In this document: positions 4,301 through 40,100 of the stretch, piece by piece | How positions within the stretch are numbered: the first letter of the stretch is position 1 | How the letters are laid out: each line of letters begins with the position of its first letter | DNA from: Botryllus schlosseri | Taxonomy: Eukaryota | DNA: 64,000 bases | Assembly: GCA_051294905.1 (NCBI GenBank) | Contig: CM119371.1 | Span: 21,206,001-21,270,000 of the forward strand | Direction: 5' to 3' | Made by a program: the position numbers and the translations under genes | The notes under the pieces: generated by a model | What the model saw: only the letters and a program-made list of their open reading frames with translations | Databases searched by the model: none | What the model was told of the DNA's origin: nothing

Positions 4301-4789
4301 GGACTAATCGAATTATCCAGCCTCATTGATAGCAAATAGTGCTCGTGTCTGAAATAATGGAATTCGCTAGGTATATAATTGAATTTAGATCCAACGACTC
4401 GTTTGCAACTTATACTGAAAGGTTGTCAAAGTAGTCGTTGAAGCCACAACTTCAATGTGAATATATGCGGGTTTTGTTTCTGCAATCATAAAACTTGGCT
4501 GATGTCGAATTCATGAACTAAATTTTGTTGTATTGGTCGCGGCAACTTCTCTGTACGTTGGTAAAGTAACTTTGTCACGCAAGCTATTATTAGATATACC
4601 TGAATATGGAATCAACACAGAATTTTACCTTTCAAGTAGCGATGACGGGGGCATAAGATATAGCAGAAGGATTTCGTGGTTAATCGAAGATGGCATCCTA
4701 AATATACCCCGGACGGAGATAGCCGCCAAGTTTGCGGTCAATTCTTTGCTGAAGCAACCGGAGTAGTAGATATAGGCCGATTATAGCCA

Positions 4790-4868
4790 CCAATGAGATT
4801 ACGCCACGTGTCCAGCCACGCCCACTTTCAAATTTAAATTTTCCCGCGTATTGTTTTTATTTTCCCGC
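4790..4868. promoter_or_regulatory. Terminal cluster of transcription-factor-like motifs (mirrored at the right end)
   Basis: CCAAT 4790-4794, CACGTG 4805-4810, CCACGCCC 4816-4823, TTCAAA (CHR reverse) 4827-4832, E2F-type TTTCCCGC at 4840-4847 and 4861-4868. Confidence 0.4.
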
Positions 4869-4949
4869 GTTTTTTTTTTATTTTAATTTTGGATTATGAG
4901 AACGGTTACTCGCCGACAGTTGAACCGAGGACCTCACGACTCACATATG

Positions 4950-5152
4950 AAAACACGCCTTCTCCTGGAATCGAACCGAGAACCTCATGCCTTATATACC
5001 GCAACTGTAACCATTACACTACCGCGCTCGCTGAGAATATGCGTATGTATTGAACCTTTAACCCCGAATGAAAACGGCTCCTCTCCCTGATCCGAACCGA
5101 GGACCTTATGACTTGTAGAACAGAACCGTAACCATTACACTATCGCGCTCGC
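4950..5152 (-). ncRNA. Left-arm mirror of the two tRNA-like Pol III units (5152-5071 and 5031-4950)
   Basis: Reverse complement of 22120-22322. Confidence 0.55.
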
Positions 5153-5585
5153 TGACAATCTCCTTTAGTATTGAAGCTTTTAAAAAAAGGTTGTCTAATA
5201 AGGCACAAGCATTGAAAACACATTTGTTATTTGTGCGACAATCACCATATATTTTTCGGGATATCCACATGATAATGGTCCCTATTGACCTCAGAAAAGG
5301 ATTCAGGTCCATTTTCCGGCCTCAAGAAAGCTACCATTAAATTAGAGATGACTACCGTACGCTTCCGAGCCCGCGCTCTCAATTGTAAGGCTAGGCGACG
5401 AGTGTACCAGTACCATTACAGACGTACAACGAACGATCAATGTAAGTGGATCTGTAAATCATGAGCAATAATAAGCGACGAGTGTGCCATCAACATTATA
5501 GACGTACAAACGAGCATATTCAACTAGCATTGATGCTTTATCGATTTAGCGCGGTATGTGTAGCTGGATGCTAACCAATTCGCAT

Positions 5586-6017
5586 TTAACAATGCGACCC
5601 GCGCACAATTATGTAGCCCGATTTTCGTTGAATATTGACGACCCCAATAAATCGAATGAGCTCTTTTCCGCAGACATCTATGACACAGCTGTCAGTCCAG
5701 TGGACACGAACTTGAGATTCCGTGGGGTTAAATTCCGCATCAAATAAGATCAGAGCGCCTTTTCTCGCTTTCAGGATTTGGACTGATGCGTCCGGCCAAT
5801 GTCGCAACACTACAATATGTGGTAACACGAACCTGTGCTCACGTACAGTTGTTATTTGTAGTGTCATCGTCGCCCGCCAATGCGATAAACTCCCAACGGC
5901 TGACACATTGGTCTTCAATCTAATACCAGCATATTTTTTGTAGGTCGAGAACAAGGGTAATTTAATTGCAACTAAAATGCCTGCGGCTTGTTTTGGCTCA
6001 AGGGTCGAATGCAACAT
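5586..6017 (-). CDS. Intronless 143-aa hypothetical protein near the element end (possible degenerate dUTPase-like fold)
   Basis: ATG-started ORF in a GC-richer subterminal zone with a beta-rich composition; identical protein in the other arm. Confidence 0.45.
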   Translation of the reverse strand: MLHSTLEPKQAAGILVAIKLPLFSTYKKYAGIRLKTNVSAVGSLSHWRATMTLQITTVREHRFVLPHIVVLRHWPDASVQILKARKGALILFDAEFNPTESQVRVHWTDSCVIDVCGKELIRFIGVVNIQRKSGYIIVRGSHC

Positions 6018-7890
6018 ATGAATCCATTCGCGTTACGCACTATAGCCTATTTAGGATGATGAGCCAAAACGCGTAGGCGAGGACATGGAGATAATAACTA
6101 GCCTATATATTTAGAACAAATCAAGCATTGATTTCACGATAACGTATTCGTTATAACGTCATAAAAATTTAGCGAGTTTTATAAGCTGCTTATCCTCAAT
6201 AACCAATTTGCGGAAATTAGTGAAGAAGTGGATTGTACAGATTCTTAGAACTGCACGACAATCTGGTTATAGATTTGCTGATGCTACCTGCTGCCAGCAT
6301 CATAACCAAGCAACCTTTACCTACCCGTCAGCTAATGTCTTACTATGTAAAACATGCATTCTGCACGTTCTTCCGTGTAGACGAACGTAATTTACCGATG
6401 TCCTAAATATTCAATTAATTCGGTTACTTTGTGTGGCAGCTCATAATTTGAAATCAGCAACGACTTCATTACATTACAAGTCTTACAGTTTTCGTTACTT
6501 CTTGCTCGTTTCTTTACTGCAAAAAGCGTTTATATTCAACTCGTCGCATTTTAGATTGCTTCGAGTCGTGGCGGTAGTTATGAATAAGTTAATATTGTGC
6601 CTACTGCCCAGTGCACCTATAGATGCGGAATCTACTTAACACGCGCATGGATCGCTTATTTCAAATAAATCGCATAAAGTAATAAACGTGCTGGAGTTGT
6701 CAATCTAAAATCACATTCATGACACGAAATGAGTCATCGCCATTTTGAATTTATGATATGTTTATAAACTACATTTGAAAATGCGTGGGCCCCGAAGTCA
6801 GGTTATTGCAACAGCTATAAAAAAAAGTAACATAGTGAGTTTAATTAGGTCGATAAAATATTATATATTTTTCGATTACATTTCATCCATATCTACAAAT
6901 ATATCTTGATGCTATCGTGAGCCACTAAAATGTTCTCCGCATGCGATCCGCTAACCGTAGTTTGCTCATCCCTGGTTTTAATCGTAATCTTTCGAGTAAG
7001 TTCTGTTGGTAGGCAAGCCCTACCAGAATATATTTTGATAAAGGCAAGAGTAAATCGTTATCGAGCACCTTTCGTTATCAACTTCTTCAGTAACTCAAAA
7101 TCGGTGACCGATCGCGACCTCTCGGAATAAATGAACAACTGGCAATATGAACAGGACATGAAGCTACGATGTCCGATAATTCTTTTCAATTAAAGTAGAA
7201 GTATAGCCATTTCCGACCGAGTAAAACGTTACTCGGCATTGCGCTCTCGATAGTAGTGAGAAATGATATTCGTTTACTTTCGATAATATCCAACATACGG
7301 ACTCATGTCGAGGGCAATTTTTAGAACTCTAATATCGCATAGCCTAACTTTGCAATATTTTTCGATTTATTTAGTCATGTTTTCCTTGCGATAGCCATTC
7401 AGCATCGCGAAAATTCATAGTACAATTTAGAATAAACTGCTAACTTTATCAAGGTCTTTGAAAAGTACTTTTCAACATTTAACTATCATAACATAGTAAA
7501 CTTCTACTCAAGTACGAGAAGTAGCGATTGTAAGGTGATTAGAAAATAAGTATTACGGGCCCAGTTTTGTCTAAAACCTAAATCGCAACACGTTATCTGA
7601 TCCATTCCGAATGACGAGATTAAATATCCCTGAAAAATGAATAATATTCATAATATTCACATTGCTATACATAAAATTTGCTCTGACATTGCCCATAGTG
7701 ACCATTTAGAATTGGATAGTAAAGGAGTCGAAATTTCTTCGATGCGCCTAGTGCACTAATTCGAGTGCTGAAATCCGAATCGAAAAATTTGTTATAATGA
7801 TTCGAGTCGAGTAGTAAAATTTAATTAGCGAGCACTGAAATTACAGTAATATAGTTATCACCGATACGAAATTTGGTAGCCATTTCCCCG

Positions 7891-8320
7891 GAATAGTAAT
7901 CAGTCCGAAACATTATGATAAATAGATAAGGTTGAAGAAATATAAAAATATCATCAATGGTGTATGTATTATGAAACTGGAAATATTGTATTTGCGGTAG
8001 CACGCAATTGGTTTCCAATTCGTAATTTCAACCGCATCGGCAGTTTTTTCATAAAAATAACTAAACAAATACTTTGATACTAATTTCAAAATAACGCAAA
8101 TCTCTTAATGAATGTCCCTTGAATAGTAATCAATCCAAAACATTATCATGCAAGGTCCGAGAAACATAAAAATATCATTAATGTGGTATGCATTGTGAAA
8201 CAGGCAATATTTTCTTTGCGGTGACCAGGGAATACGTTCTAATTCGTAATTTCAACCCCATCATCATTCTCTCATAATAATGAATTAGCAAATCCTTGGA
8301 TCCTAATTTTCAAAGTAGCT
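7891..8320. repeat. Diverged tandem duplication (~230-bp unit) just upstream of the Bcl-2 ORF
   Basis: GAATAGTAATCA..CC.AAACATTAT at 7891 and 8121; both units share AAAATATCAT, TTTGCGGT and AATTCGTAATTTCAACC blocks. Confidence 0.75.
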
Positions 8321-8362
8321 TAGATATCTGAATGAGCTCTGACTCGCTGTTATCTTCACACC

Positions 8363-9277
8363 ATGGAATTATTACGAGTATCACCATCGCTCACTGAAGA
8401 AAGGGATGAAATTTTATCCGGGGCATATTCCTTGGCCAGGAATTTTATCATGTACGAACTAGACGGGCCGAGCGTTAAAGCAAATACGAAAGCGGAGGCA
8501 ACCTTACGGCGAGTTAGTGATGAAATGTTCGAGCGACATCGAACTGTCGTAAACGCAATCTCTAAACGTCTCCGATACAGTATTGTTGAAGTCGACGAAA
8601 AATATGAAGAATATTCTGCGGAAGAGCGGATGTTCCTGATGATAGCTGACGAAATTTTTAAAGATACCCAAGAGAATTGGGGTCGGATCGTATCTGTGTT
8701 CGTGCTCGGTAGCATTCTTGCTCGCAAAAACGAGGATGAGCATCACGGTGATAATATAGAAGGTATCATACAGTCAGTCGGGAATTACATTGGTAGTAGA
8801 AGGCGAAAGTGGATAGCGGAAAATGGAGGATGGGTAAGCGATTTTACATGGCCTGATAAGGATTTGGCAATTATCATTTAGCTTGAGGTACTGTGTATCT
8901 GCTCTCGAGAGTCCATACCACCTATCGATAATGAAACTTAGCTTGCACTTCACAATTCGGTTTTCAATTTACATTTTGTCATAAGGCACAGTACTTTACA
9001 TTCCAAGCGCTGCGAACTTTGAATTACCTAGCAAGTACGGTAACTTTCCTCTGCAAGATTAGGAAGGCTTACATTCTTTTGTTTGTTTCAGGACAGTTTT
9101 GTAGGATTTTTTGATAACGCAGCTTTCGATGATAGTAAAGTTTGGAAGAGGCTCATGCTTGTTGGAATTGGACTGACGTCTATTGCAATGGCAATAACAA
9201 GATCATGGATAGTCCTTTGCCGTACATCATGTAATGTTTTTTTAAATAATATATTTCTTCACCGTTTAATTACATAA
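8363..9277 (+). CDS. Bcl-2 family protein, Mcl-1/A1-like, intact copy; 2 exons (8363-8833, 9092-9277), 218 aa
   Basis: BH3-like EATLRRVSDEM, BH1 ENWGRIVSVFVLG, BH2 WIAENGGW|DSFVGFF split by a phase-0 GT-AG intron at the typical Bcl-2 position, and a C-terminal hydrophobic anchor LMLVGIGLTSIAMAI. Confidence 0.93.
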
Positions 9278-9461
9278 ATTTTACTGTAGGACGGATGCAG
9301 TTTCTTCTGAGATTACATTAAAGATTGCTCCATAAAACCGTCTTTATCTGGAACATTTTCATTTTTCAAATTTATACAGCTACGTAAGGAAATTGCTAGG
9401 TTACCTAGAAAACGCCGCAGGTCAAATTTGATCCAATTCCGACCATAGTAGCGACAAGGAG

Positions 9462-12181
9462 TTATGACAGCTCAAAATGATCCATCTTTCGAAGCCAAAT
9501 ATCGTTGGTTCTCCACGACCAAATATCGTGTTCTATAAATATTGTGTATATGGAACAGATATAAATGTTGCTATTTTGTTGTTATTTGCGAAGAATACTT
9601 TGCTCAGTAATTAATTTCACGGGGATTCTAAACCTCAATACATACAAGTGAGCAAAGTTACATTAACCTGCGTTAACCTGTAGTGTTATGTAACTACCTA
9701 CAATTCTATCAAGACGTAGCGAACACGACAAGTAATATGGAGTGAAGGAATAAGGGCGCGAAATTCCAATGTATAGATGCATATTTAGGCGGAAATATCG
9801 TCTTACCGGACGAATGCAATTGTTTCCTTAAAGTTTTCCTGTCTACGCCATTCAAGCGCGGTAAGATCAGTTTGAGTTGGCGACATTCAGGATGATATTT
9901 CAAGAAGCTCTGAATGATAGTCACATATTTCTCGTCGATTCTTGTTCTATCGCTGTCACTGAGGTCGAATACCTTTAGCTGTTCATTGAATAATTGAATA
10001 TTAGGAGGTTTAGGTCAATTTCATAAACGAAATCTGAACTAAATTGCTTTATTGAGAACCATGAGAGAGCAGAAAGAACTTACTGTAGTGCATCGCTTGC
10101 CCATCTCTTCACTAAGATTCCTGATTTGCATGGAAAGCATCTTGCAATTACTCAGGTTGAATTCTTCAACGCGGGTTTTGTGCAGGATTTCAGTTACTGT
10201 TTTGTAGCAGGAGGAAATGTCGGGATTTCTACTCAAATCCAGCGAATGCAACTAAAACACAGTGTGATGTTCAGATATTTTACGACGCTACAAACCACTC
10301 AGTTGCTGTAATAATAATATTTATCGACGACAGAGCAATATTATCAATTTCTCCGCCTCATCGCAAAACTGGTGTAATACAGAAAATAATGAACGTCTAT
10401 AGGATATCGAAGAAACGGCGGAAACTAGCATTAATATGAATGAGCGATGGAAAATCTTTCACTCATAAGCAAGGACACTTTCATCAGCAGACGTGATCAG
10501 GAATGCCTTATTGATGATAAATTCGCTCGCTAAATGCAATGCCATGCCTGACGTTGCTTGGAACTCGCATTAGTTGCAAACTATGCTTGATTATTTCACT
10601 AGTAAGAAAACAAAACAGATCTAGCTAAAATGGATCACCTCATGATTACCGAGACCATTGTTCAACGACGTTAATGAATGTTCATCCAATTCGCAAGCTG
10701 AAAGTCGAACTGCCTTCGTGTTATGCCTTTTCGCGAAACGTCCGATTTCTTGCAATCCTACCGGTTCCAAATCCGTATTGTAACTTAGATCGAGTTTATC
10801 AACCTACAAAATACAGCAAATTATTCTGAAAACGACACACAAAATTGCGGAAACGAGTGGCTACCTCGATTTCACCAAAACATTCAAAAGCATGAATTTC
10901 CTCCGGTGTGAGGTCGCATCCTTTCATCACAAGAGTAACCGCTCTGTCTTTACAAAATAAGGGCGGCAGTGCAGCCATACACTCTTCATCCAGACGATTA
11001 TAACTGATGTCGAGATATTGGAGCTAAACGAATATGGGAAACTGACAACCTACGACCAGAATTAATCGGGGATGAAGACAAACATTACAAACTTATAACA
11101 GAGAAATGTTGATTAGCCAGTCACGTCATAATAGATTGGCGAAATGTTCTGAGATTAAAATAGAATTTCTGTGATTCGTCTCAAATGGACTCTTTGCAAG
11201 CAGTCATAAAGAATGTGACTATTGACTACTACTGAACAACAATCACTCAAGACAAGATCCATATACCTTACTGTTTTTGACCTGCATGGCGACGAAATCC
11301 TTAGACTGCAAGTGCGAGTTCACAAGTGACAATTAGGTTAGATCGCTTGAAATAATAGTCCCGAGTTGCGTAAAGTTGATGTTTTCTCCGTAGCTGAGAT
11401 CGAGTTTTTGCAATTTAACCTATGGGAATGAGGTAATAAAAGTCTCATATCGAAAGGATTTATACTAGATTAGTGTCCGGATATTTTCATCGCCAATACC
11501 TGATGCTGTCTGATAAGTTGACTCAAAACGATCAGAAAATCGTTAGATCCGCTACTTTCTTCCAGGTTAAGTTCCGTCGAGCCACACTTCTTCATCAACT
11601 CGCAGATGGCTGGCAGGAGTTTGTCAATGCCATCGTGGGCTGTGACGCTGACTTTTTTTATTTGGACCTGGACGAGTGCAAAACTTTCCCCCATAAAACA
11701 GTAATTGAGGTGATGAATAATTAAACCCTCATCAACTCTCACTAGTCTAGTATGACTATTGCGATAAATGGCTACACCGGTGCGCGATTGAGCATTGTTC
11801 GGTACGATACCTTCAATTCACGCGTAGTAACAATATTAATATGAAACAATGCGGTCATGATGAAGGTTTTTTTTAAAGCCCGCTATGTATATTATACGGA
11901 TAAACATGCTTAAATTGAACGTGGGTTTATAATGCTCAGTGACTGTGAGCGGTATGTGTAAATGTGTTTACCTCAAATTCAAATTCGCGAATTTGGTCCA
12001 ATATCATCTTTACAAGGTTTTCATTGAGATGGCATTGGCGGAATTCTAACTCGTACATGCGAGATTTCTCCATGAGACCATTCACGATATTCTTTACATC
12101 CAATTCAGTCGTAGTTTTATGATAGATCCCACAAGGAATTTCAACTTCATCATGATCCATAAGTATTGATTGATGGTACAT
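9462..12181 (-). pseudogene. Mirror copy of the LRR gene with a premature stop
   Basis: Exons mirror the right-arm gene (12181-11972, 11667-11500, 11419-11267, 11023-10865, 10803-10639, 10251-10084, 9978-9807, 9532-9462). Codon TAT at 14738-14740 is TAA at 11335-11333. Confidence 0.8.
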
Positions 12182-13891
12182 CCTGTTATCACCTTTAGCA
12201 TATGTGAATCATAAATAATTCATGATCAGGAAATAAAATTAATATTAATTCTAATCAACCTCCTATGTGATTTTTGTGTCGGACTATTTCAATATTTCGA
12301 TAAGTCGGATAAAATGATGATACGTGACATATATACTCAAGCAAGAAACCGCTCCAGTACCAACACCACCGCGTATGCCAATAACATATGACTGAATCAT
12401 GGTAGTTTGCAGAGTTTAGTCAGCCATTGTACAGTTTATGCGCTATGAGAATATCGAGTTAATCCAATTACACCATCATAAAATTTATTCAAGAGTCAAA
12501 ATTATATTATTTTTCAGTATTGTATGGCCGAAATTATTAGAAATAAACATCCAAAAAGTTTAAGCTTCGGTTTTTACTTTATGAGGATAATTTTATATAC
12601 TTTATTATAGTCATGGTAGGGTGCTTGTAATAACGAAGGTGTTTTTAACAACAAGCTATCAATAACTTCACAAATGACACAAGCTAATTGATAAATTTTG
12701 AAATTGCCTGTAAGATATTGAGCTAATTATCAGAGTCGACGGCGATAGAACTATTTTACTTGAGTAATATTTATCGCTACATAAATATCGTTATGCCTTT
12801 GATACGATGTAAATAGTTATCTCGTGCGGCGTCCGTTGCGTGTCGTCACCCTTCGTACACCGTCGAGGAATAAGCTACCCGGTGCCGTTGACTTGTGATT
12901 ATTTGTCGTAGACTTAAGTTGTGATATTGCAAATTTTGAGGTTCTAAGATGGGTCCGTTCGGGTAAAAAGGAGCCCACGAATGCAATAAAGAGACAATTC
13001 TGAGGATGCCGCCCGCCCCTATTTAATCCCTTTTATTGCCCCGAACCCCGAGCGGGGCGGGCGGCATCCTCAGAATTGTCTCTTTATTGCATTCGTGGGC
13101 TCCTTTTTACCCGAACGGACCCATCTTAGAACCTCAAAATTTGCAATATCACAACTTAAGTCTACGACAAATAATCACAAGTCAACGGCACCGGGTAGCT
13201 TATTCCTCGACGGTGTACGAAGGGTGACGACACGCAACGGACGCCGCACGAGATAACTATTTACATCGTATCAAAGGCATAACGATATTTATGTAGCGAT
13301 AAATATTACTCAAGTAAAATAGTTTTATCGCCGTCGACTCTGATAATTAGCTCAATATCTTACAGGCAATTTCAAAATTTATCAATTAGCTTGTGTCATT
13401 TGTGAAGTTATTGATAGCTTGTTGTTAAAAACACCTTCGTTATTACAAGCACCCTACCATGACTATAATAAAGTATATAAAATTATCCTCATAAAGTAAA
13501 AACCGAAGCTTAAACTTTTTGGATGTTTATTTCTAATAATTTCGGCCATACAATACTGAAAAATAATATAATTTTGACTCTTGAATAAATTTTATGATGG
13601 TGTAATTGGATTAACTCGATATTCTCATAGCGCATAAACTGTACAATGGCTGACTAAACTCTGCAAACTACCATGATTCAGTCATATGTTATTGGCATAC
13701 GTGGTGGTGTTGGTACTGGAGCGGTTTCTTGCTTGAGTATATATGTCACGTATCATCATTTTATCCGACTTATCGAAATATTGAAATAGTCCGACACAAA
13801 AATCACATAGGAGGTTGATTAGAATTAATATTAATTTTATTTCCTGATCATGAATTATTTATGATTCACATATGCTAAAGGTGATAACAGG

Positions 13892-16611
13892 ATGTACCAT
13901 CAATCAATACTTATGGATCATGATGAAGTTGAAATTCCTTGTGGGATCTATCATAAAACTACGACTGAATTGGATGTAAAGAATATCGTGAATGGTCTCA
14001 TGGAGAAATCTCGCATGTACGAGTTAGAATTCCGCCAATGCCATCTCAATGAAAACCTTGTAAAGATGATATTGGACCAAATTCGCGAATTTGAATTTGA
14101 GGTAAACACATTTACACATACCGCTCACAGTCACTGAGCATTATAAACCCACGTTCAATTTAAGCATGTTTATCCGTATAATATACATAGCGGGCTTTAA
14201 AAAAAACCTTCATCATGACCGCATTGTTTCATATTAATATTGTTACTACGCGTGAATTGAAGGTATCGTACCGAACAATGCTCAATCGCGCACCGGTGTA
14301 GCCATTTATCGCAATAGTCATACTAGACTAGTGAGAGTTGATGAGGGTTTAATTATTCATCACCTCAATTACTGTTTTATGGGGGAAAGTTTTGCACTCG
14401 TCCAGGTCCAAATAAAAAAAGTCAGCGTCACAGCCCACGATGGCATTGACAAACTCCTGCCAGCCATCTGCGAGTTGATGAAGAAGTGTGGCTCGACGGA
14501 ACTTAACCTGGAAGAAAGTAGCGGATCTAACGATTTTCTGATCGTTTTGAGTCAACTTATCAGACAGCATCAGGTATTGGCGATGAAAATATCCGGACAC
14601 TAATCTAGTATAAATCCTTTCGATATGAGACTTTTATTACCTCATTCCCATAGGTTAAATTGCAAAAACTCGATCTCAGCTACGGAGAAAACATCAACTT
14701 TACGCAACTCGGGACTATTATTTCAAGCGATCTAACCTATTTGTCACTTGTGAACTCGCACTTGCAGTCTAAGGATTTCGTCGCCATGCAGGTCAAAAAC
14801 AGTAAGGTATATGGATCTTGTCTTGAGTGATTGTTGTTCAGTAGTAGTCAATAGTCACATTCTTTATGACTGCTTGCAAAGAGTCCATTTGAGACGAATC
14901 ACAGAAATTCTATTTTAATCTCAGAACATTTCGCCAATCTATTATGACGTGACTGGCTAATCAACATTTCTCTGTTATAAGTTTGTAATGTTTGTCTTCA
15001 TCCCCGATTAATTCTGGTCGTAGGTTGTCAGTTTCCCATATTCGTTTAGCTCCAATATCTCGACATCAGTTATAATCGTCTGGATGAAGAGTGTATGGCT
15101 GCACTGCCGCCCTTATTTTGTAAAGACAGAGCGGTTACTCTTGTGATGAAAGGATGCGACCTCACACCGGAGGAAATTCATGCTTTTGAATGTTTTGGTG
15201 AAATCGAGGTAGCCACTCGTTTCCGCAATTTTGTGTGTCGTTTTCAGAATAATTTGCTGTATTTTGTAGGTTGATAAACTCGATCTAAGTTACAATACGG
15301 ATTTGGAACCGGTAGGATTGCAAGAAATCGGACGTTTCGCGAAAAGGCATAACACGAAGGCAGTTCGACTTTCAGCTTGCGAATTGGATGAACATTCATT
15401 AACGTCGTTGAACAATGGTCTCGGTAATCATGAGGTGATCCATTTTAGCTAGATCTGTTTTGTTTTCTTACTAGTGAAATAATCAAGCATAGTTTGCAAC
15501 TAATGCGAGTTCCAAGCAACGTCAGGCATGGCATTGCATTTAGCGAGCGAATTTATCATCAATAAGGCATTCCTGATCACGTCTGCTGATGAAAGTGTCC
15601 TTGCTTATGAGTGAAAGATTTTCCATCGCTCATTCATATCAATGCTAGTTTCCGCCGTTTCTTCGATATCCTATAGACGTTCATTATTTTCTGTATTACA
15701 CCAGTTTTGCGATGAGGCGGAGAAATTGATAATATTGCTCTGTCGTCGATAAATATTATTATTACAGCAACTGAGTGGTTTGTAGCGTCGTAAAATATCT
15801 GAACATCACACTGTGTTTTAGCTGCATTCGCTGGATTTGAGTAGAAATCCCGACATTTCCTCCTGCTACAAAACAGTAACTGAAATCCTGCACAAAACCC
15901 GCGTTGAAGAATTCAACCTGAGTAATTGCAAGATGCTTTCCATGCAAATCAGGAATCTTAGTGAAGAGATGGGCAAGCGATGCACTACAGTAAGTTCTTT
16001 CTGCTCTCTCATGGTTCTCAATAAAGCAATTTAGTTCAGATTTCGTTTATGAAATTGACCTAAACCTCCTAATATTCAATTATTCAATGAACAGCTAAAG
16101 GTATTCGACCTCAGTGACAGCGATAGAACAAGAATCGACGAGAAATATGTGACTATCATTCAGAGCTTCTTGAAATATCATCCTGAATGTCGCCAACTCA
16201 AACTGATCTTACCGCGCTTGAATGGCGTAGACAGGAAAACTTTAAGGAAACAATTGCATTCGTCCGGTAAGACGATATTTCCGCCTAAATATGCATCTAT
16301 ACATTGGAATTTCGCGCCCTTATTCCTTCACTCCACATTACTTGTCGTGTTCGCTACGTCTTGATAGAATTGTAGGTAGTTACATAACACTACAGGTTAA
16401 CGCAGGTTAATGTAACTTTGCTCACTTGTATGTATTGAGGTTTAGAATCCCCGTGAAATTAATTACTGAGCAAAGTATTCTTCGCAAATAACAACAAAAT
16501 AGCAACATTTATATCTGTTCCATATACACAATATTTATAGAACACGATATTTGGTCGTGGAGAACCAACGATATTTGGCTTCGAAAGATGGATCATTTTG
16601 AGCTGTCATAA
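13892..16611 (+). CDS. Ribonuclease-inhibitor/NLR-type leucine-rich-repeat protein, open copy, about 421 aa
   Basis: GT-AG exons 13892-14101, 14406-14573, 14654-14806, 15050-15208, 15270-15434, 15822-15989, 16095-16266 and a tentative last exon 16541-16611. The internal exons are phase 0, 153-168 nt, and most start with an LRR motif (VKLQKLDLSYG, LQYLDISYNRL, VDKLDLSYN, LHSLDLSRN, LKVFDLSDS). The true start codon is uncertain. Confidence 0.82.
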
Positions 16612-17319
16612 CTCCTTGTCGCTACTATGGTCGGAATTGGATCAAATTTGACCTGCGGCGTTTTCTAGGTAACCTAGCAATTTCCTTACGTAGCTGTATA
16701 AATTTGAAAAATGAAAATGTTCCAGATAAAGACGGTTTTATGGAGCAATCTTTAATGTAATCTCAGAAGAAACTGCATCCGTCCTACAGTAAAATTTATG
16801 TAATTAAACGGTGAAGAAATATATTATTTAAAAAAACATTACATGATGTACGGCAAAGGACTATCCATGATCTTGTTATTGCCATTGCAATAGACGTCAG
16901 TCCAATTCCAACAAGCATGAGCCTCTTCCAAACTTTACTATCATCGAAAGCTGCGTTATCAAAAAATCCTACAAAACTGTCCTGAAACAAACAAAAGAAT
17001 GTAAGCCTTCCTAATCTTGCAGAGGAAAGTTACCGTACTTGCTAGGTAATTCAAAGTTCGCAGCGCTTGGAATGTAAAGTACTGTGCCTTATGACAAAAT
17101 GTAAATTGAAAACCGAATTGTGAAGTGCAAGCTAAGTTTCATTATCGATAGGTGGTATGGACTCTCGAGAGCAGATACACAGTACCTCAAGCTAAATGAT
17201 AATTGCCAAATCCTTATCAGGCCATGTAAAATCGCTTACCCATCCTCCATTTTCCGCTATCCACTTTCGCCTTCTACTACCAATGTAATTCCCGACTGAC
17301 TGTATGATACCTTCTATAT

Positions 17320-18510
17320 CAGGGGTGGGCAAACTTTTGAGCTCGCGGGCCGCATTCAACATCTGAATCCATTTGCGGGCCGCACTATATAAAATTGGGA
17401 TCATAAACCCAATTGCAATATTGGTATTTGAGGACAGGGAGATAATATATGTGCCAAACATTATTGCTTTTGATGATATCGTATACGCGTCAGTAACATA
17501 GTGGCGAGATTGTATAGGCTGGTCGACCTCAATAACCAATTTGTCAAAACTTTCGAGATGAAAGTCGGTTGTCCCGATTCTTAGAACAGGATTTAAATTT
17601 AAATCTGTGAGCACTGAGCAGCGATCTGTTCATAGATTTACTAATTCGATCCAATTTTGGTTCAGTTCCAGGACACACAATACTGACAGCATCGTAACCA
17701 TGTTAGCTTCAAACACGCTTCTACTATGTGTAGATAAAATATGAATACCCCAATTCTACGCATACAGAAAACGAATCGTACTAATTTGTACTAATCGTTT
17801 TTTATAAGCATATCACTTAAATAATTAAAACTGGAGTGCTGGCCAATATGAAATCACACTCGTGAATCGAATTATGTCAATCTCGTATAGGATTTCTGTG
17901 ATGTTTAGCAGTTGGAACCTTTCAAACTTCGTGGGCCTTGAAATCGGGCTGTCGCTGCTGCCCCAGAAATTAAACATAAAAATATCATAGGAAGTATTTA
18001 ACCTTAGAACAGTGGTTCTCAAACTTCTTAAGACACGCCCCCCTTACGATGGTGAAAGTTTGGCACCCCCCTTATCGTCATATCACAAAACGCAACCAGG
18101 ATGCTAGCAAACCTAACGGATAGTTTGATGGCATGGAAGGTTACGACCGTGGATGAGAGATTTTTAAAAATGAAATTCAGACTATATACAGAGCAATAAC
18201 CAAGAATTGTATGTAAATCGCGCGGAGCGCGAATTTTTTTTAGTTGAGCTCAGCTTCGCACCCCCTTCAGATGCTTTCACGCCACCAAGGGGGGGGGGTG
18301 CCTCCCCCCAGTTTGAGAACCACTGCCTTAGAATTATCATGGTGAAATATATTAAGAAAAAGTTTAATAAAGTCCCTGCATTATTTCGATTTTAAGTAGG
18401 CCTACGCATTTTATCAATATTTAAAAAAAAATTCATTAAACTCTCGCGGGCCGCACAGAACGGTGTTGCGGGCCGCATGCGGCCCGCGGGCCGTAGTTTG
18501 CCCACCCCTG
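17320..18510. mobile_element. Non-autonomous hAT element inserted in the Bcl-2 exon
   Basis: 16-bp TIR CAGGGGTGGGCAAACT; perfect 8-bp TSD TTCTATAT (17312-17319 and 18511-18518); empty site present in the left arm (8754-8761). Confidence 0.95.
18010..18325. mobile_element. hAT MITE nested in the previous element
   Basis: TIR CAGTGGTTCTCAAACT; perfect TSD CCTTAGAA (18002-18009 and 18326-18333). Confidence 0.93.
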
Positions 18511-21254
18511 TTCTATATTATCACCGTGATGCTCATCCTCGTTTTTGCGAGCAAGAATGCTACCGAGCACGAACACAGATACGATCCGACCCCAATTCTC
18601 TTGGGTATCTTTAAAAATTTCGTCAGCTATCATCAGGAACATCCGCTCTTCCGCAGAATATTCTTCATATTTTTCGTCGACTTCAACAATACTGTATCGG
18701 AGACGTTTAGAGATTGCGTTTACGACAGTTCGATGTCGCTCGAACATTTCATCACTAACTCGCCGTAAGGTTGCCTCCGCTTTCGTATTTGCTTTAACGC
18801 TCGGCCCGTCTAGTTCGTACATGATAAAATTCCTGGCCAAGGAATATGCCCCGGATAAAATTTCATCCCTTTCTTCAGTGAGCGATGGTGATACTCGTAA
18901 TAATTCCATGGTGTGAAGATAACAGCGAGTCAGAGCTCATTCAGATATCTAAGCTACTTTGAAAATTAGGATCCAAGGATTTGCTAATTCATTATTATGA
19001 GAGAATGATGATGGGGTTGAAATTACGAATTAGAACGTATTCCCTGGTCACCGCAAAGAAAATATTGCCTGTTTCACAATGCATACCACATTAATGATAT
19101 TTTTATGTTTCTCGGACCTTGCATGATAATGTTTTGGATTAATTACTATTCAAGGGACATTCATTAAGAGATTTGCGTTATTTTGAAATTAGTATCAAAG
19201 TATTTGTTTAGTTATTTTTATGAAAAAACTGCCGATGCGGTTGAAATTACGAATTGGAAACCAATTGCGTGCTACCGCAAATACAATATTTCCAGTTTCA
19301 TAATACATACACCATTGATGATATTTTTATATTTCTTCAACCTTATCTATTTATCATAATGTTTCGGACTGATTACTATTCCGGGGAAATGGCTACCAAA
19401 TTTCGTATCGGTGATAACTATATTACTGTAATTTCAGTGCTCGCTAATTAAATTTTACTACTCGACTCGAATCATTATAACAAATTTTTCGATTCGGATT
19501 TCAGCACTCGAATTAGTGCACTAGGCGCATCGAAGAAATTTCGACTCCTTTACTATCCAATTCTAAATGGTCACTATGGGCAATGTCAGAGCAAATTTTA
19601 TGTATAGCAATGTGAATATTATGAATATTATTCATTTTTCAGGGATATTTAATCTCGTCATTCGGAATGGATCAGATAACGTGTTGCGATTTAGGTTTTA
19701 GACAAAACTGGGCCCGTAATACTTATTTTCTAATCACCTTACAATCGCTACTTCTCGTACTTGAGTAGAAGTTTACTATGTTATGATAGTTAAATGTTGA
19801 AAAGTACTTTTCAAAGACCTTGATAAAGTTAGCAGTTTATTCTAAATTGTACTATGAATTTTCGCGATGCTGAATGGCTATCGCAAGGAAAACATGACTA
19901 AATAAATCGAAAAATATTGCAAAGTTAGGCTATGCGATATTAGAGTTCTAAAAATTGCCCTCGACATGAGTCCGTATGTTGGATATTATCGAAAGTAAAC
20001 GAATATCATTTCTCACTACTATCGAGAGCGCAATGCCGAGTAACGTTTTACTCGGTCGGAAATGGCTATACTTCTACTTTAATTGAAAGGAATTATCGGA
20101 CATCGTAGCTTCATGTCCTGTTCATATTGCCAGTTGTTCATTTATTCCGAGAGGTCGCGATCGGTCACCGATTTTGAGTTACTGAAGAAGTTGATAACGA
20201 AAGGTGCTCGATAACGATTTACTCTTGCCTTTATCAAAATATATTCTGGTAGGGCTTGCCTACCAACAGAACTTACTCGAAAGATTACGATTAAAACCAG
20301 GGATGAGCAAACTACGGTTAGCGGATCGCATGCGGAGAACATTTTAGTGGCTCACGATAGCATCAAGATATATTTGTAGATATGGATGAAATGTAATCGA
20401 AAAATATATAATATTTTATCGACCTAATTAAACTCACTATGTTACTTTTTTTTATAGCTGTTGCAATAACCTGACTTCGGGGCCCACGCATTTTCAAATG
20501 TAGTTTATAAACATATCATAAATTCAAAATGGCGATGACTCATTTCGTGTCATGAATGTGATTTTAGATTGACAACTCCAGCACGTTTATTACTTTATGC
20601 GATTTATTTGAAATAAGCGATCCATGCGCGTGTTAAGTAGATTCCGCATCTATAGGTGCACTGGGCAGTAGGCACAATATTAACTTATTCATAACTACCG
20701 CCACGACTCGAAGCAATCTAAAATGCGACGAGTTGAATATAAACGCTTTTTGCAGTAAAGAAACGAGCAAGAAGTAACGAAAACTGTAAGACTTGTAATG
20801 TAATGAAGTCGTTGCTGATTTCAAATTATGAGCTGCCACACAAAGTAACCGAATTAATTGAATATTTAGGACATCGGTAAATTACGTTCGTCTACACGGA
20901 AGAACGTGCAGAATGCATGTTTTACATAGTAAGACATTAGCTGACGGGTAGGTAAAGGTTGCTTGGTTATGATGCTGGCAGCAGGTAGCATCAGCAAATC
21001 TATAACCAGATTGTCGTGCAGTTCTAAGAATCTGTACAATCCACTTCTTCACTAATTTCCGCAAATTGGTTATTGAGGATAAGCAGCTTATAAAACTCGC
21101 TAAATTTTTATGACGTTATAACGAATACGTTATCGTGAAATCAATGCTTGATTTGTTCTAAATATATAGGCTAGTTATTATCTCCATGTCCTCGCCTACG
21201 CGTTTTGGCTCATCATCCTAAATAGGCTATAGTGCGTAACGCGAATGGATTCAT

Positions 21255-21686
21255 ATGTTGCATTCGACCCTTGAGCCAAAACAAGCCGCAGGCATTTTAG
21301 TTGCAATTAAATTACCCTTGTTCTCGACCTACAAAAAATATGCTGGTATTAGATTGAAGACCAATGTGTCAGCCGTTGGGAGTTTATCGCATTGGCGGGC
21401 GACGATGACACTACAAATAACAACTGTACGTGAGCACAGGTTCGTGTTACCACATATTGTAGTGTTGCGACATTGGCCGGACGCATCAGTCCAAATCCTG
21501 AAAGCGAGAAAAGGCGCTCTGATCTTATTTGATGCGGAATTTAACCCCACGGAATCTCAAGTTCGTGTCCACTGGACTGACAGCTGTGTCATAGATGTCT
21601 GCGGAAAAGAGCTCATTCGATTTATTGGGGTCGTCAATATTCAACGAAAATCGGGCTACATAATTGTGCGCGGGTCGCATTGTTAA
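21255..21686 (+). CDS. Mirror copy of the 143-aa hypothetical protein
   Basis: Translation identical to 5586-6017. Confidence 0.45.
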   Translation: MLHSTLEPKQAAGILVAIKLPLFSTYKKYAGIRLKTNVSAVGSLSHWRATMTLQITTVREHRFVLPHIVVLRHWPDASVQILKARKGALILFDAEFNPTESQVRVHWTDSCVIDVCGKELIRFIGVVNIQRKSGYIIVRGSHC

Positions 21687-22119
21687 ATGCGAATTGGTTA
21701 GCATCCAGCTACACATACCGCGCTAAATCGATAAAGCATCAATGCTAGTTGAATATGCTCGTTTGTACGTCTATAATGTTGATGGCACACTCGTCGCTTA
21801 TTATTGCTCATGATTTACAGATCCACTTACATTGATCGTTCGTTGTACGTCTGTAATGGTACTGGTACACTCGTCGCCTAGCCTTACAATTGAGAGCGCG
21901 GGCTCGGAAGCGTACGGTAGTCATCTCTAATTTAATGGTAGCTTTCTTGAGGCCGGAAAATGGACCTGAATCCTTTTCTGAGGTCAATAGGGACCATTAT
22001 CATGTGGATATCCCGAAAAATATATGGTGATTGTCGCACAAATAACAAATGTGTTTTCAATGCTTGTGCCTTATTAGACAACCTTTTTTTAAAAGCTTCA
22101 ATACTAAAGGAGATTGTCA

Positions 22120-22201
22120 GCGAGCGCGATAGTGTAATGGTTACGGTTCTGTTCTACAAGTCATAAGGTCCTCGGTTCGGATCAGGGAGAGGAGCCGTTT
22201 T
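22120..22201 (+). ncRNA. Second, more diverged tRNA-like Pol III unit
   Basis: A box TAGTGTAATGG 22130-22140, B-like GGTTCGGATCA 22174-22184, TTTT 22198-22201. Lies 121 bp from the next unit. Confidence 0.5.
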
Positions 22202-22240
22202 CATTCGGGGTTAAAGGTTCAATACATACGCATATTCTCA

Positions 22241-22322
22241 GCGAGCGCGGTAGTGTAATGGTTACAGTTGCGGTATATAAGGCATGAGGTTCTCGGTTCG
22301 ATTCCAGGAGAAGGCGTGTTTT
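22241..22322 (+). ncRNA. tRNA-like Pol III unit (A box, B box, T4 terminator)
   Basis: A box TAGTGTAATGG 22251-22261, B box GGTTCGATTCC 22295-22305 (44-nt offset, as in tRNA genes), TTTT 22319-22322. No proper acceptor stem. Confidence 0.6.
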
Positions 22323-23111
22323 CATATGTGAGTCGTGAGGTCCTCGGTTCAACTGTCGGCGAGTAACCGTTCTCATAATCCACTGATATTCGAGACAAAA
22401 AATAAAAAAAGAAATACGTCAATTCTCGGCGAGAATCCGTTCTCATAATCCATTAAAAATCGAGCAAAATTAAAATAAAAAAAAAACGCGGGAAAATAAA
22501 AACAATACGCGGGAAAATTTAAATTTGAAAGTGGGCGTGGCTGGACACGTGGCGTAATCTCATTGGTGGCTATAATCGGCCTATATCTACTACTAACCGG
22601 GAACTTTCAATATTGTGATTAACCTCGCTCGCTGCAAAGGAGGAAAACTTCAAGAACTCAAAAATTGGGATATCCTGGCGAAATATTCTTTTGATGTTCC
22701 CGTACTGCAGCGAAGCGGGTGTAGAGAGATTTATGGTCAATATATAGGCGTTTTATTTTGCTACAGACTATACGGATTAGTTGACTTTTACAGTTACTTT
22801 TCACTGTCCATATCTATTCCATTTAGATTAATTGACGTTAAATAATTTTCATTGAGCGTTGATATACCATCAGTATACTCTTTAATGCACTAATACAATT
22901 CGGTAACATTTATCAACTGAATATCCTACTGTTTCAAAACCAACTCGCTTCTATTGAACCCCTATTTACCATTATTGAGTAGCATACATTACAGCCCGAC
23001 ACAAGCACAAATGTAAGGCCGAAAATACTGTACCGCATGAGGGCTCTCACACATGAAGCAGAACTTAAAAAAGTCATGCTCGCTATCCTCGTTGGTCGGA
23101 ACTATGTACAT

Positions 23112-37100: not shown

Positions 37101-40100
37101 AATTCAAATCAAGTTGCCTTTTCGGAGCATTTTGCTAGCTGTCTGTAATGAGTGGTCACTGGTCATTAGGGTTGTCCAAAATTTGACAAATCTTGCAAAT
37201 CGTCCGTTGTAATGTCTTATTCTATATATTATTGATAAAAAACGGCACTGGGCCTAAATGAAGCTCACAGGAAGGCCATTAGGATTTCGTACAAAGCGTT
37301 TGAAATTAGCTGCCGAAGAATGGGCGCGTCACCGACCATATAACGACGAGAAGACTAATCACGAGACCATGGCTCTTGGTTGGCTAAACGGCTATGCTTC
37401 AATGACCACGACAGCAGCAGCTTCTGATCAGGTAATCAAGGCGTCTGCTACCGGCGGCGATTGTGAAATCGCATAGTATGTAGGGTGACAGATAATGATT
37501 TAGGATTGATTCAGGGTATGTTGAGGTACGAAATATATGATGAACAAACAGCAGCTGCTTCACAAAAACGTCTAAATCAGCGGTTCCTAACATTTTTTCA
37601 ATCATAGCCATCTTTTGAAGCTCCACACCGATCATCGCCTCCCAAATATTGGGAACCGAAAAATTGGTGTACAAACTGAGATCACCGGCGAGTTGACTGA
37701 TAGAAAAAGGTCAACTTATCAGCTCGACCTCGAAATTACACTTTTACAGCTAAATTTCGTGGGTTGACTGGATAAAATTCATTTCTCAAACTTGACTCCA
37801 ATCAGAAGCGTAACAGCACTTCGTCATGGGCCCTATAGGGTGATAAACAAAACCCCAGACCCCCTCAGCTAGTGGGCCTTTTGTCGCTACATGTTAGCTA
37901 CACCCTGTTCCATGTAGCTTACTGTTTGGTGAGTCACCTATTTTGCCTAAACGTGCGAAACGCGACAAATTTCTAGAATTCATGTTTGAATCGGTCAATA
38001 TAGTCGGGAATTGCATATATTTTGCAAGCAATTTTTTATCTTCTCTCTGCTCACGTAATCAGATTACCGGTAGAGCTTAGTGTGAGGTGTTGAAAATGGT
38101 AGGAGCCCTGAATAATAATTGAAAATCTTCGGGTGGACCCGTTGTTATATTGACTTCGTTGCATGATGCTTTTTCGTGACCTCCTATATCTGCTATGATG
38201 CCAAAATATATGGAAATCACCAAAATGTACCAAACTGAAAGACGGAATGATTTCAAATTGGTATTTCTTAACTGGCAAAAAATTTTTCTCTGTGGGATGG
38301 CATTTGTCCTGTAGGGTTCAGATCGCCAGGACAGGAACATCCAAAGCTAGCCATTGAGGCGCATATAAACAATTAAACATTCATGCATAATGTATATATA
38401 TCGAAGTTTCCAGTCAGCACAGCGGCATTCCTTTTGGCGAAGGTGTTCTCGCTGCTGATCGTTCTGGCATGCTTCTCGGAGTCGTATGTTACATGGCCTA
38501 TAACTTCATATGTCTTGGTGCGTCGTGGCGCAGTAACCGCCGATGCCGAAGTCTCCATTTCCTTGAATCATGCGTATTTTTGTTTGGGGAAGGGAACCCT
38601 ACCCCCTAATGAAGCTATATGACAATATTAAATCGCGTGCATCATTAAGGACTTTGACAACACTTGCAAGTGGACACAATTTGATGTGAGCATCTAATAA
38701 GTACCAAGCATAACCCGCTGATTCAGCCGATCCTGGTAGCATTCTGAACTTCAACTATGAGCTAGGCCTACTACAACATGAACCCAATAAGATCACACAT
38801 ATTATAGTGTGGTTTTTAAGCCCTATATTTGTATTCAATAATGATATATCCTTTCTGAAACTAGGAATCCATCGCCACTGGCATGAGAGCATATGCTTTC
38901 CCTAGTTGAAAACAATGCAGATAGGCGACGGCGGTTTCCTTCACAATAAAGCGGTCATGCTTTGGACGTTTTTTGAAGCAGCTGTTGTTTGCTCATCATG
39001 TATTTCGTACCTCAACATACGCCGAATCAATCCTAATTCATTATCTGTCAACCTACATACAATGCGATTTCACAATCGCCAACTGTAGCATACTCCTTGA
39101 TTCCCTAATCAGCAAGCTTTTGCTGTCGTGGTCATTGAAGCATAGCTGATTAGCCAGTTGCGATCAGTGGTTTCGTGATTACTCGTCATCTCGCCGTTGC
39201 ATAGTCGGTGCACGCCCCTTTTTCAGCAGCTACTTTCAAACGCTTTGCACGAAATCTTAACGGCCTTCTTGTGAGCTTCTTTTAGGCCTAGTGTCGTTTT
39301 TTTACCAATAAACTATATAAAAAGACATTACAACGGAGGATTTGTGAGATTTATCAAATTTTGGACAACCCAAGTGGTCATTGATTCTCAACCGATGAAC
39401 GAATATAGAGTTAAACGCTCACATATACGTAGAACTGTTAAACTACGTAAGTAATTGCATAGCCTTAGTTATAGTTACCAGCCAAAATTGGAGAAACGAA
39501 TTCATAAGATGCAATACACTATGAATTTACATGTTGATATCATACAATTCAAGCCTTCGCCAATGTATGAGGAGTATATAAATCATATGCGAGTTCAATT
39601 TAAATAAAACAAGATGTTTTGCTAAGGTAAGAACAGAAATGGATATTTTGCTATTAAAATACTTTACTATTAACTTACGGCAACGTGAGCTGTGGGCTTC
39701 GATCTCTGCGTTTGTGGTCTATTTATTTGTGGAATTGAACCAAATTTTGTGTGTAGGCCTAAATTAGGTAACCTAACAATTTTATCAAGTAGTCAGCACA
39801 ATTTGAGAAAAAAAGTCATTTTTGAATAGCCCTATTGTGCATGTTACTGAGCCTCGATTGTGATATCACAACAAAATGCAATGACTTCAAATCATGCCTC
39901 TCTACTTCTAACTTACTTCAAATTTACTCGATTTGTGACTTGATTGGTGACATCTCTTGACTTAACATGGGTCACCTCCTAAATTCGATGGACATGACAT
40001 GACTGGAGAAAAAATGTGCATTGACTCGTGATGACTTGTGACTAGATAGTGAATTGTTCCCAGCCCTGCTGGTAATCATGTCGTATTATCATTTTAGGGA

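Follow-up and report, generated by a model that had tools for sequence, protein, structure and literature searches.

A Bcl-2 gene of Botryllus schlosseri was probably captured once, as DNA, by a Polinton and spread in helper-dependent palindromes, and the protein that it encodes is likely pro-survival. We are highly confident of the origin and the carriers taken together, i.e., that the Bcl-2 cargo was captured as DNA from the host's own gene and that its carriers are palindromic satellites, polymerase-less Polintons, and complete Polintons. As a rule, the capture and streamlining of host survival genes by DNA viruses are deduced from final products, the donors having vanished long ago. In the present case, the donor, intron-bearing intermediates, and an intron-free form occur in one genome, which makes the route, the order of the losses, and the function testable.

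In the window, which is the whole 64,000-nt stretch of DNA that was analyzed, the cargo gene lies in a palindromic element with the following features.

4756..4761 (+): left target-site duplication AACCGG, 6 bp
4762..22594 (no strand): palindromic non-autonomous Polinton/Maverick derivative, 17,833 bp, with AGTAGTAG...CTACTACT ends and without core genes, delimited from the sequence
4762..5285 (+): terminal ~420–520 bp, 83–85% like the terminal repeats of two gene-bearing C11 Polintons
5586..5867 (−): ORF of 93 aa without a Pfam match; its mirror copy ends at 21686 (+)
13020..13053 (no strand): asymmetric palindrome center of 34 nt, similar in three other copies
16796..18909 (−): mirror Bcl-2 gene of the right arm, with exon 1 interrupted
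17320..18510 (no strand): non-coding insertion of 1191 bp, which we take to be hAT-like, in the right-arm Bcl-2 copy, with the 8-bp duplication TTCTATAT
18010..18325 (no strand): nested element of 316 bp inside the 17320..18510 insertion, with the 8-bp duplication CCTTAGAA
22595..22600 (+): right target-site duplication AACCGG, 6 bp

The hallmarks of Polintons/Mavericks are AGT-type termini, long terminal repeats, and a 6-bp duplication, and the window element has all of them. Its ends read AGTAGT and are 83–85% like those of a gene-bearing Polinton over 370–524 bp. The two C11 Polintons that share these ends carry integrase (rve-chromo), A32 ATPase, BIR, and polymerase genes and no Bcl-2 gene. 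The polymerase of the C11 partner has motifs A–C, and a PDB search with the Polinton polymerase returned 0 matches; the capsid and protease genes of the gene-bearing Polintons, which had no Pfam match, are presumed to be such from their position. In the window element itself, no polymerase B, integrase, ATPase, or capsid gene was found among the ORFs, with Pfam, or by searching, and the longest ORF of the entire window is 181 aa. The element is a non-autonomous Polinton derivative and not an autonomous Polinton/Maverick. The initial annotation had regarded the gene as cargo of a Polinton-type element, and the ends, the 6-bp duplication, and the likeness of the terminal repeats to those of gene-bearing Polintons bear this out. 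The 93-aa ORF recurs with 54–58% identity in the polymerase-less elements and in the second palindrome lineage.

The two arms of the palindrome differ at 8 positions (99.9% identity), as might be expected if the structure were an assembly or chimeric-read artefact. We rejected this reading, which is scarcely credible given that equal 6-bp duplications lie at both ends of the palindrome, that 24 further arm pairs occur on many contigs, and that the center is shared. Moreover, only one arm has the insertion with its own 8-bp duplication, which, together with the element nested in it, rules out a fold-back artefact. Elsewhere in the window, we observed nested inverted repeats (37127–39448 with 44216–44542), a tandem array of ~79-bp units (52351–53914), a hairpin of ~500 bp (55381–55877), and a fragment of a Pao retrotransposon peptidase (59364–59738).

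The cargo gene of the left arm (8363–9277) and the host-derived sequences that flank it are arranged as follows.

8265..8362 (+): upstream homology to host intron 1 (its 3′ end), with the acceptor AG lost (0/500 shuffles reach its score)
8363..8833 (+): exon 1 of the Bcl-2 cargo, corresponding to host exon 2, from helix 1 through BH3, BH1, and BH2 to NGGW (Pfam, AF2 model, fold match)
8834..9091 (+): phase-0 GT-AG intron, 258 bp, homologous to host intron 2 (sequence, 0/500 shuffles)
9092..9277 (+): exon 2 of the cargo, corresponding to host exon 3, with the hydrophobic tail and then read-through into the former 3′ UTR (alignment to host gene)
9278..9330 (+): continued host 3′ UTR homology (alignment)

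The spliced product has 218 aa. Exon 1 matched the Pfam Bcl-2 profile (PF00452) with an E-value of 1.1e-21 and 77.7 bits (cut-off 31.4), the motifs are LRRVSDE (BH3), NWGR (BH1), and WIAENGGW (BH2), and the C-terminal tail is hydrophobic, with a mean Kyte-Doolittle value of 1.59 over 19 aa. The intron is bounded by GTAAGC and TTTCAG and directly follows the NGGW codons. A phase-0 intron within BH2 is a feature of the multi-motif Bcl-2 family, and the cargo intron has the position of the host intron, which is spliced in RNA. All 60 fetched loci had GT and AG in the corresponding position, with intron lengths of 58–260 bp, so the intron is not a chance feature. The Pfam match, the motifs, and these loci agree with the two-exon structure initially annotated, in which BH3, BH1, BH2, and a tail are present and the intron comes directly after NGGW.

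The AF2 model of exon 1 alone had a pLDDT of 87.5 when a 128-row alignment was used instead of 12 close sequences only (pLDDT 45.6). Its best fold match in the PDB was zebrafish Nrz (6fbx; TM 0.78), and it also fitted the BAX and BOK folds with similar scores. In the PDB sequence search, BCL2L10 came first, then A1 and Bcl-2, with Mcl-1 behind, and all 60 of the 60 matches listed were pro-survival proteins, in which the PDB is rich; with the Styela protein as the query, Bcl-xL and BCL2L10 were best. These matches place the cargo, with fair confidence, in the putative pro-survival group. The initial label “Mcl-1-like” is unproven, since BCL2L10/Nrz was best in both sequence and fold, followed by A1, Bcl-2, Bcl-xL, and Mcl-1. 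A word-index protein search with the cargo as the query gave no match, and no relative was found in IMG/VR.

Two details of the window copy are specific to parts of the family. The SD in BH3, which the initial annotation had noted in place of the usual GD, is present in the window copy and in 25 of the 35 loci of its lineage. It is not a general trait but a young variant of a subfamily; GD occurs in the host gene, in 8 of 8 printed polymerase-less copies, and, in the other palindrome lineage, at 24 of 25 loci. Relative to most members of its lineage, the window copy has 11 aa more in the tail (218 vs. 207 aa), with 25 extra residues past the usual end; the host stop codon TAA aligns to TCA in the window lineage, which accounts for the longer tail.

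To find the origin of the cargo, a profile search of 1.84 billion proteins was made, and names were looked up for the best 10 of 150 matches; the best named relative among these 10 was Styela clava bcl-2-like protein 2. In B. schlosseri, a locus on C14 matched this S. clava protein with 180 bits, compared with ≤ 157 bits for the listed element copies. The Bcl-2 gene at this locus has three exons. RNA shows splicing of both introns, which measure 404 and 184 bp, with 116 and 69 junction reads, respectively, in run X18 and further splicing in run X23. The 30 kb around it contained no Polinton gene and no inverted repeat. The cargo is 73% identical to this gene and 48% identical to the S. clava protein. 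The expressed three-exon gene is likely the parent of the cargo, and of the two origins considered at the outset, a parent locus or horizontal transfer, these identities favor the host's own gene over a distant taxon. A short stretch upstream of the host gene (L157:9700–9790) was also matched by RNA reads in their thousands; these have template-switch adapters, and the stretch is probably a transcribed repeat.

The alignment of cargo and host gene begins inside intron 1, continues across intron 2, and extends into the 3′ UTR, and for each of these parts 0/500 shuffles reached the score. The homology in intron 1, intron 2, and the 3′ UTR indicates capture as genomic DNA, as the initial annotation had proposed. 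For the intron of one second-lineage copy, the similarity to the host intron was not significant (59/500 shuffles reached the score). No match to host exon 1 was found in the palindrome arm (68/100 shuffles reached its score), and the cargo is without the 39 N-terminal residues of the host protein. The new ATG is in an ACCATGG context at a host Lys codon, and this start site is common to all forms, which points to one capture.

We scored at least 150 Bcl-2 cargo matches of 417 candidates, with identities of 77–100% and stops in 8 of the 150; this is a lower bound, and the ranking by score favors intact copies. The matches of a genome-wide PF00452 profile search were dominated by element copies. 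With at least 150 copies in addition to the separate C14 gene, the window gene is not the sole host orthologue. In the fetched set, 58 of 60 loci were intact (one locus was fetched twice), and BH1 NWGR was kept in most copies. These 60 loci included 24 inverted pairs with arms 99.3–100% alike, and in 20 of the 24 the two arms resembled each other more than they did the most similar element elsewhere. At the other end pairs, exact 6-bp duplications were found in seven of nine by script and in one more by eye, and one pair had a mismatch. The palindromes fall into two main lineages. We observed that these lineages bear the ends of different helper families, which suggests end swapping, and that two Bcl-2 palindromes stand in tandem at G000:C9:13231902-13260562 and at C10:21036721-21057643. 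More elements with the same ends were seen at L097-L100, some with a frameshifted Bcl-2 gene or retroelement insertions, and a C2H2 zinc-finger ORF of 488 aa lies between ends of the same terminal family at L095:4062-5525.

Ten of the 12 unpaired Bcl-2 loci that were fetched were polymerase-less Polintons of 14–15 kb, in which the intron-bearing gene lies between BIR and ATPase and is followed by integrase and capsid genes; at the other two, no Polinton gene was found nearby. The comparison set was 20 stretches lying upstream of capsid genes for which no Bcl-2 had been flagged, and the BIR-ATPase slot held a polymerase, recognized by protein search and motifs, in 20/20 and Bcl-2 in 0/20. The flanks of the polymerase-less cassette are 97% identical to the complete sisters without Bcl-2, and the cassette ends at the Bcl-2 stop codon, whereas both palindrome lineages have in common a further ~470 bp on the 3′ side, which includes host UTR. 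In the tree, the polymerase-less Bcl-2 is sister to one palindrome lineage (support 84) and nested among the palindrome lineages. Judging from these sequence relationships, the cassette likely moved from a palindrome to a Polinton backbone. An alternative is that the gene was under selection solely during its time in gene-bearing Polintons, and that the palindromes are repeated, passive offshoots in which the ends amplified a silent passenger. The existence of gene-bearing carriers agrees with it, but the end of the cassette at the stop codon, its flanks, and its nested position all speak against it, and we consider it unlikely.

Complete Polintons of another family carry a single-exon Bcl-2 gene of 164 aa without the membrane anchor and with an altered BH3 (NE/TE). 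It was found in 11 of 12 stretches beside a capsid gene, and in the twelfth case just past the stretch; in a sister family of complete Polintons, it was found in 0/3 members. This form has 13 copies, with full core gene sets where examined, and three examined elements had full-length polymerase frames with motifs A–C. In the host-rooted tree, the single-exon form branches first (support 74), and the lineage order has tree supports of only 74 and 84. The intron is present in the host and all other lineages, so it was lost or cut in the single-exon form. For the 9-residue tail of this form, no test of exon or intron derivation was significant (83 to 887 of 1000 shuffles). Downstream of the single-exon gene, at L160:6178-7438 (G000:C2) and in the sisters L163 and L165-L174, we noticed a 125-aa Cys-rich ORF, tRNA-Ala(TGC), an intronless ubiquitin-conjugating E2 gene (Pfam 1.5e-47), and tRNA-Pro(TGG). 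Both tRNA genes were present in 9 of 12 loci of two related Polinton families, and tRNA-Ala alone in 3. Three Polinton families have a single-BIR gene close to their left end (L092:7958-8563, L094:6103-6708, and the majority of gene-bearing elements), and Polinton capsids fall into at least four groups across the genome (99 matches, 34–100% identity).

We then considered the age of the capture and the selection on the cargo. The dS of the cargo to the host gene was 1.1–1.5, so the capture is old; the insertions are young. The initial idea of an early stage of viral Bcl-2 acquisition does not hold in time, but in structure it does, as an intron-free form exists in complete elements. After duplicates and copies with stops were left out, a codon model of 55 unique intact exon-1 sequences gave an omega of 0.52 (2dlnL 38), and one of 13 representatives gave 0.43 (2dlnL 45), so the lineage is not in neutral decay. 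The NG86 omega was 0.25–0.48 between lineages and 0.12–0.14 against the host. Within lineages, omega was 0.61, 0.64, and 0.52, a weak signal (2dlnL 6.5, 4.0, and 3.8), and a contrast of singleton and fixed changes had few fixed sites. These values indicate moderate constraint on the lineages and drift after insertion. The near-neutral omega among very close copies (NG86, 0.73) and among polymerase-less copies (1.02) would also fit a passenger that is silent in the palindromes; however, omega is < 1 within each palindrome lineage, and the splice sites persist while the introns shrink to 58 bp.

In the RNA data, no spliced read over the cargo intron was found in 6–13% of the reads of each of runs X18, X21, X22, and X15, a result that likewise fits a silent passenger. 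Cargo-like reads numbered 145, 18, 10, and 0, respectively. Of the 145 in X18, 119 were only 90–95% alike and 6 were ≥ 99% alike, and none crossed the intron; in X18 and X23, coverage of the host gene was good and its splicing was evident. The ~90%-identical X18 reads cover exon 1 only and come from some related copy, and the best fetched copy fits them at 28 of 36 positions. These reads, which no fetched copy fully matches, would be expected if some copies were domesticated survival genes and host-level selection explained the conservation. We regard such a benefit to the host as very improbable, because the copies are young, with intact duplications and arms 99.3–100% alike, and because comparisons between lineages show stronger constraint than comparisons of close copies.

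In the reading that we prefer, a single DNA-level capture spread by helper-dependent palindromes, the palindromes would borrow polymerase and integrase from complete elements via the terminal repeats and would be copied as fold-back hairpins, a proposed mode of copying that would keep the arms alike. Such mobilization by helpers in trans is suggested by dispersed copies with distinct duplications. The cargo protein may bind the BH3 helices of Bax/Bok-type killers at mitochondria and thereby postpone death in cells where the elements are replicating; selection would be at work in cells with active elements, and most inserted copies would be quiet and drifting. This anti-apoptotic role is a prediction that we consider likely, and the BIR gene in the gene-bearing elements points the same way.

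Nr-13-type proteins can also control autophagy or calcium, and the protein might be expressed as something other than a plain survival factor, namely a decoy, a pro-death or addiction module, or a regulator of autophagy or calcium. The loss of the N-terminal exon, the changes in BH3 (SD in the window copy, NE/TE in complete elements), the loss of the anchor in complete elements, and the 93-aa ORF without a Pfam match that travels with the cargo could all be read in this way. So could the absence of Apaf-1 and caspase-9 from ascidians, as given in the accessible part of the source (PMC10959488), which makes the downstream pathway of the cargo uncertain. Against this, the listed PDB sequence matches are all pro-survival proteins, BH1 NWGR is kept in most copies, and a BIR gene adjoins Bcl-2 in gene-bearing elements, so we judge a non-survival role to be quite improbable. 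Ciona has Bax and Bok according to that source (PMC10959488).

The genome holds a series from the three-exon host gene through the intron-bearing satellite and the polymerase-displacing cassette to an intron-free, anchor-free Bcl-2. More tentatively, the satellites may retain, in cis, a survival gene under selection and serve as a staging ground for viral gene capture, with the cells that bear them outliving their neighbors. If this were true of germ or stem cells, it would amount to drive by blocking cell death. The palindromes are also a case of a non-autonomous element family that maintains a gene under selection, and Bcl-2 “expansions” tallied in genomes of this kind may consist of mobile cargo.

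Finally, we compared the cargo with known systems. In the literature outside Repbase and most subscription journals, we found no Bcl-2 palindromic Polintons, no replacement of a polymerase by Bcl-2, and no series of this kind. Snap-back or copy-back defective viral genomes and self-complementary AAV are fully palindromic and helper-dependent and have viral ends; unlike them, the cargo palindromes are integrated, heritable, and 9–20 kb long, and keep a selected host gene. The single-exon form, which lies in elements with full core gene sets where examined, is a candidate viral Bcl-2 (vBcl-2) of a particle-forming virus. Cellular pro-survival proteins fall into the groups Bcl-B/Mcl-1/Bfl-1 and Bcl-2/W/XL in the available text of PMC10959488. 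The cargo resembles such proteins, e.g., S. clava bcl-2-like protein 2 (XP_039252627), in its fold, BH1-3, tail, and intron after GGW, and differs from them in the lost exon 1, the new start codon, the high copy number, and the higher omega.

As far as the accessible parts of the sources go, precedents exist for each ingredient: adintovirus Bcl2, the intron-bearing vNr-13, and intron-bearing Maverick cargo. Homologues of Bcl2 and IAP are accessory genes of adintoviruses (Starrett et al., 2021, PMC8502044), and Bcl-2 and BIR genes occur in animal Polintons there as here, where the form in complete elements is single-exon. The present case differs from what that text describes in that the parental host gene is available, the intron has been retained, and palindromes without core genes contain most of the copies; the identity to the Bcl2 of a Branchiostoma (lancelet) adintovirus (BFVD A0A5H3CWZ2) is 10%, so a separate capture is likely. 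The vNr-13 gene of herpesvirus of turkeys consists of two exons with a single intron and is ~64% identical to the host gene (PMC7199394, in the part available). It is likewise an intron-bearing viral Bcl-2 with two mirror copies in inverted repeats, and Nrz is the best fold match here; by that account, however, it is a full-length gene of tested function in an autonomous herpesvirus, without satellite amplification. Nematode Mavericks carry intron-bearing cargo (wasp/msft-1 and krma; Widen et al., 10.1101/2022.07.12.499685, accessible portion), so that, with vNr-13, an intron in a viral or cargo gene is not new; there as here, Mavericks carry host-type genes with introns. The nematode genes in that portion encode proteases and kinases and have passed from one species to another in elements that are mostly complete, whereas the cargo described here is a death regulator from the same host, carried in palindromes or in place of the polymerase.
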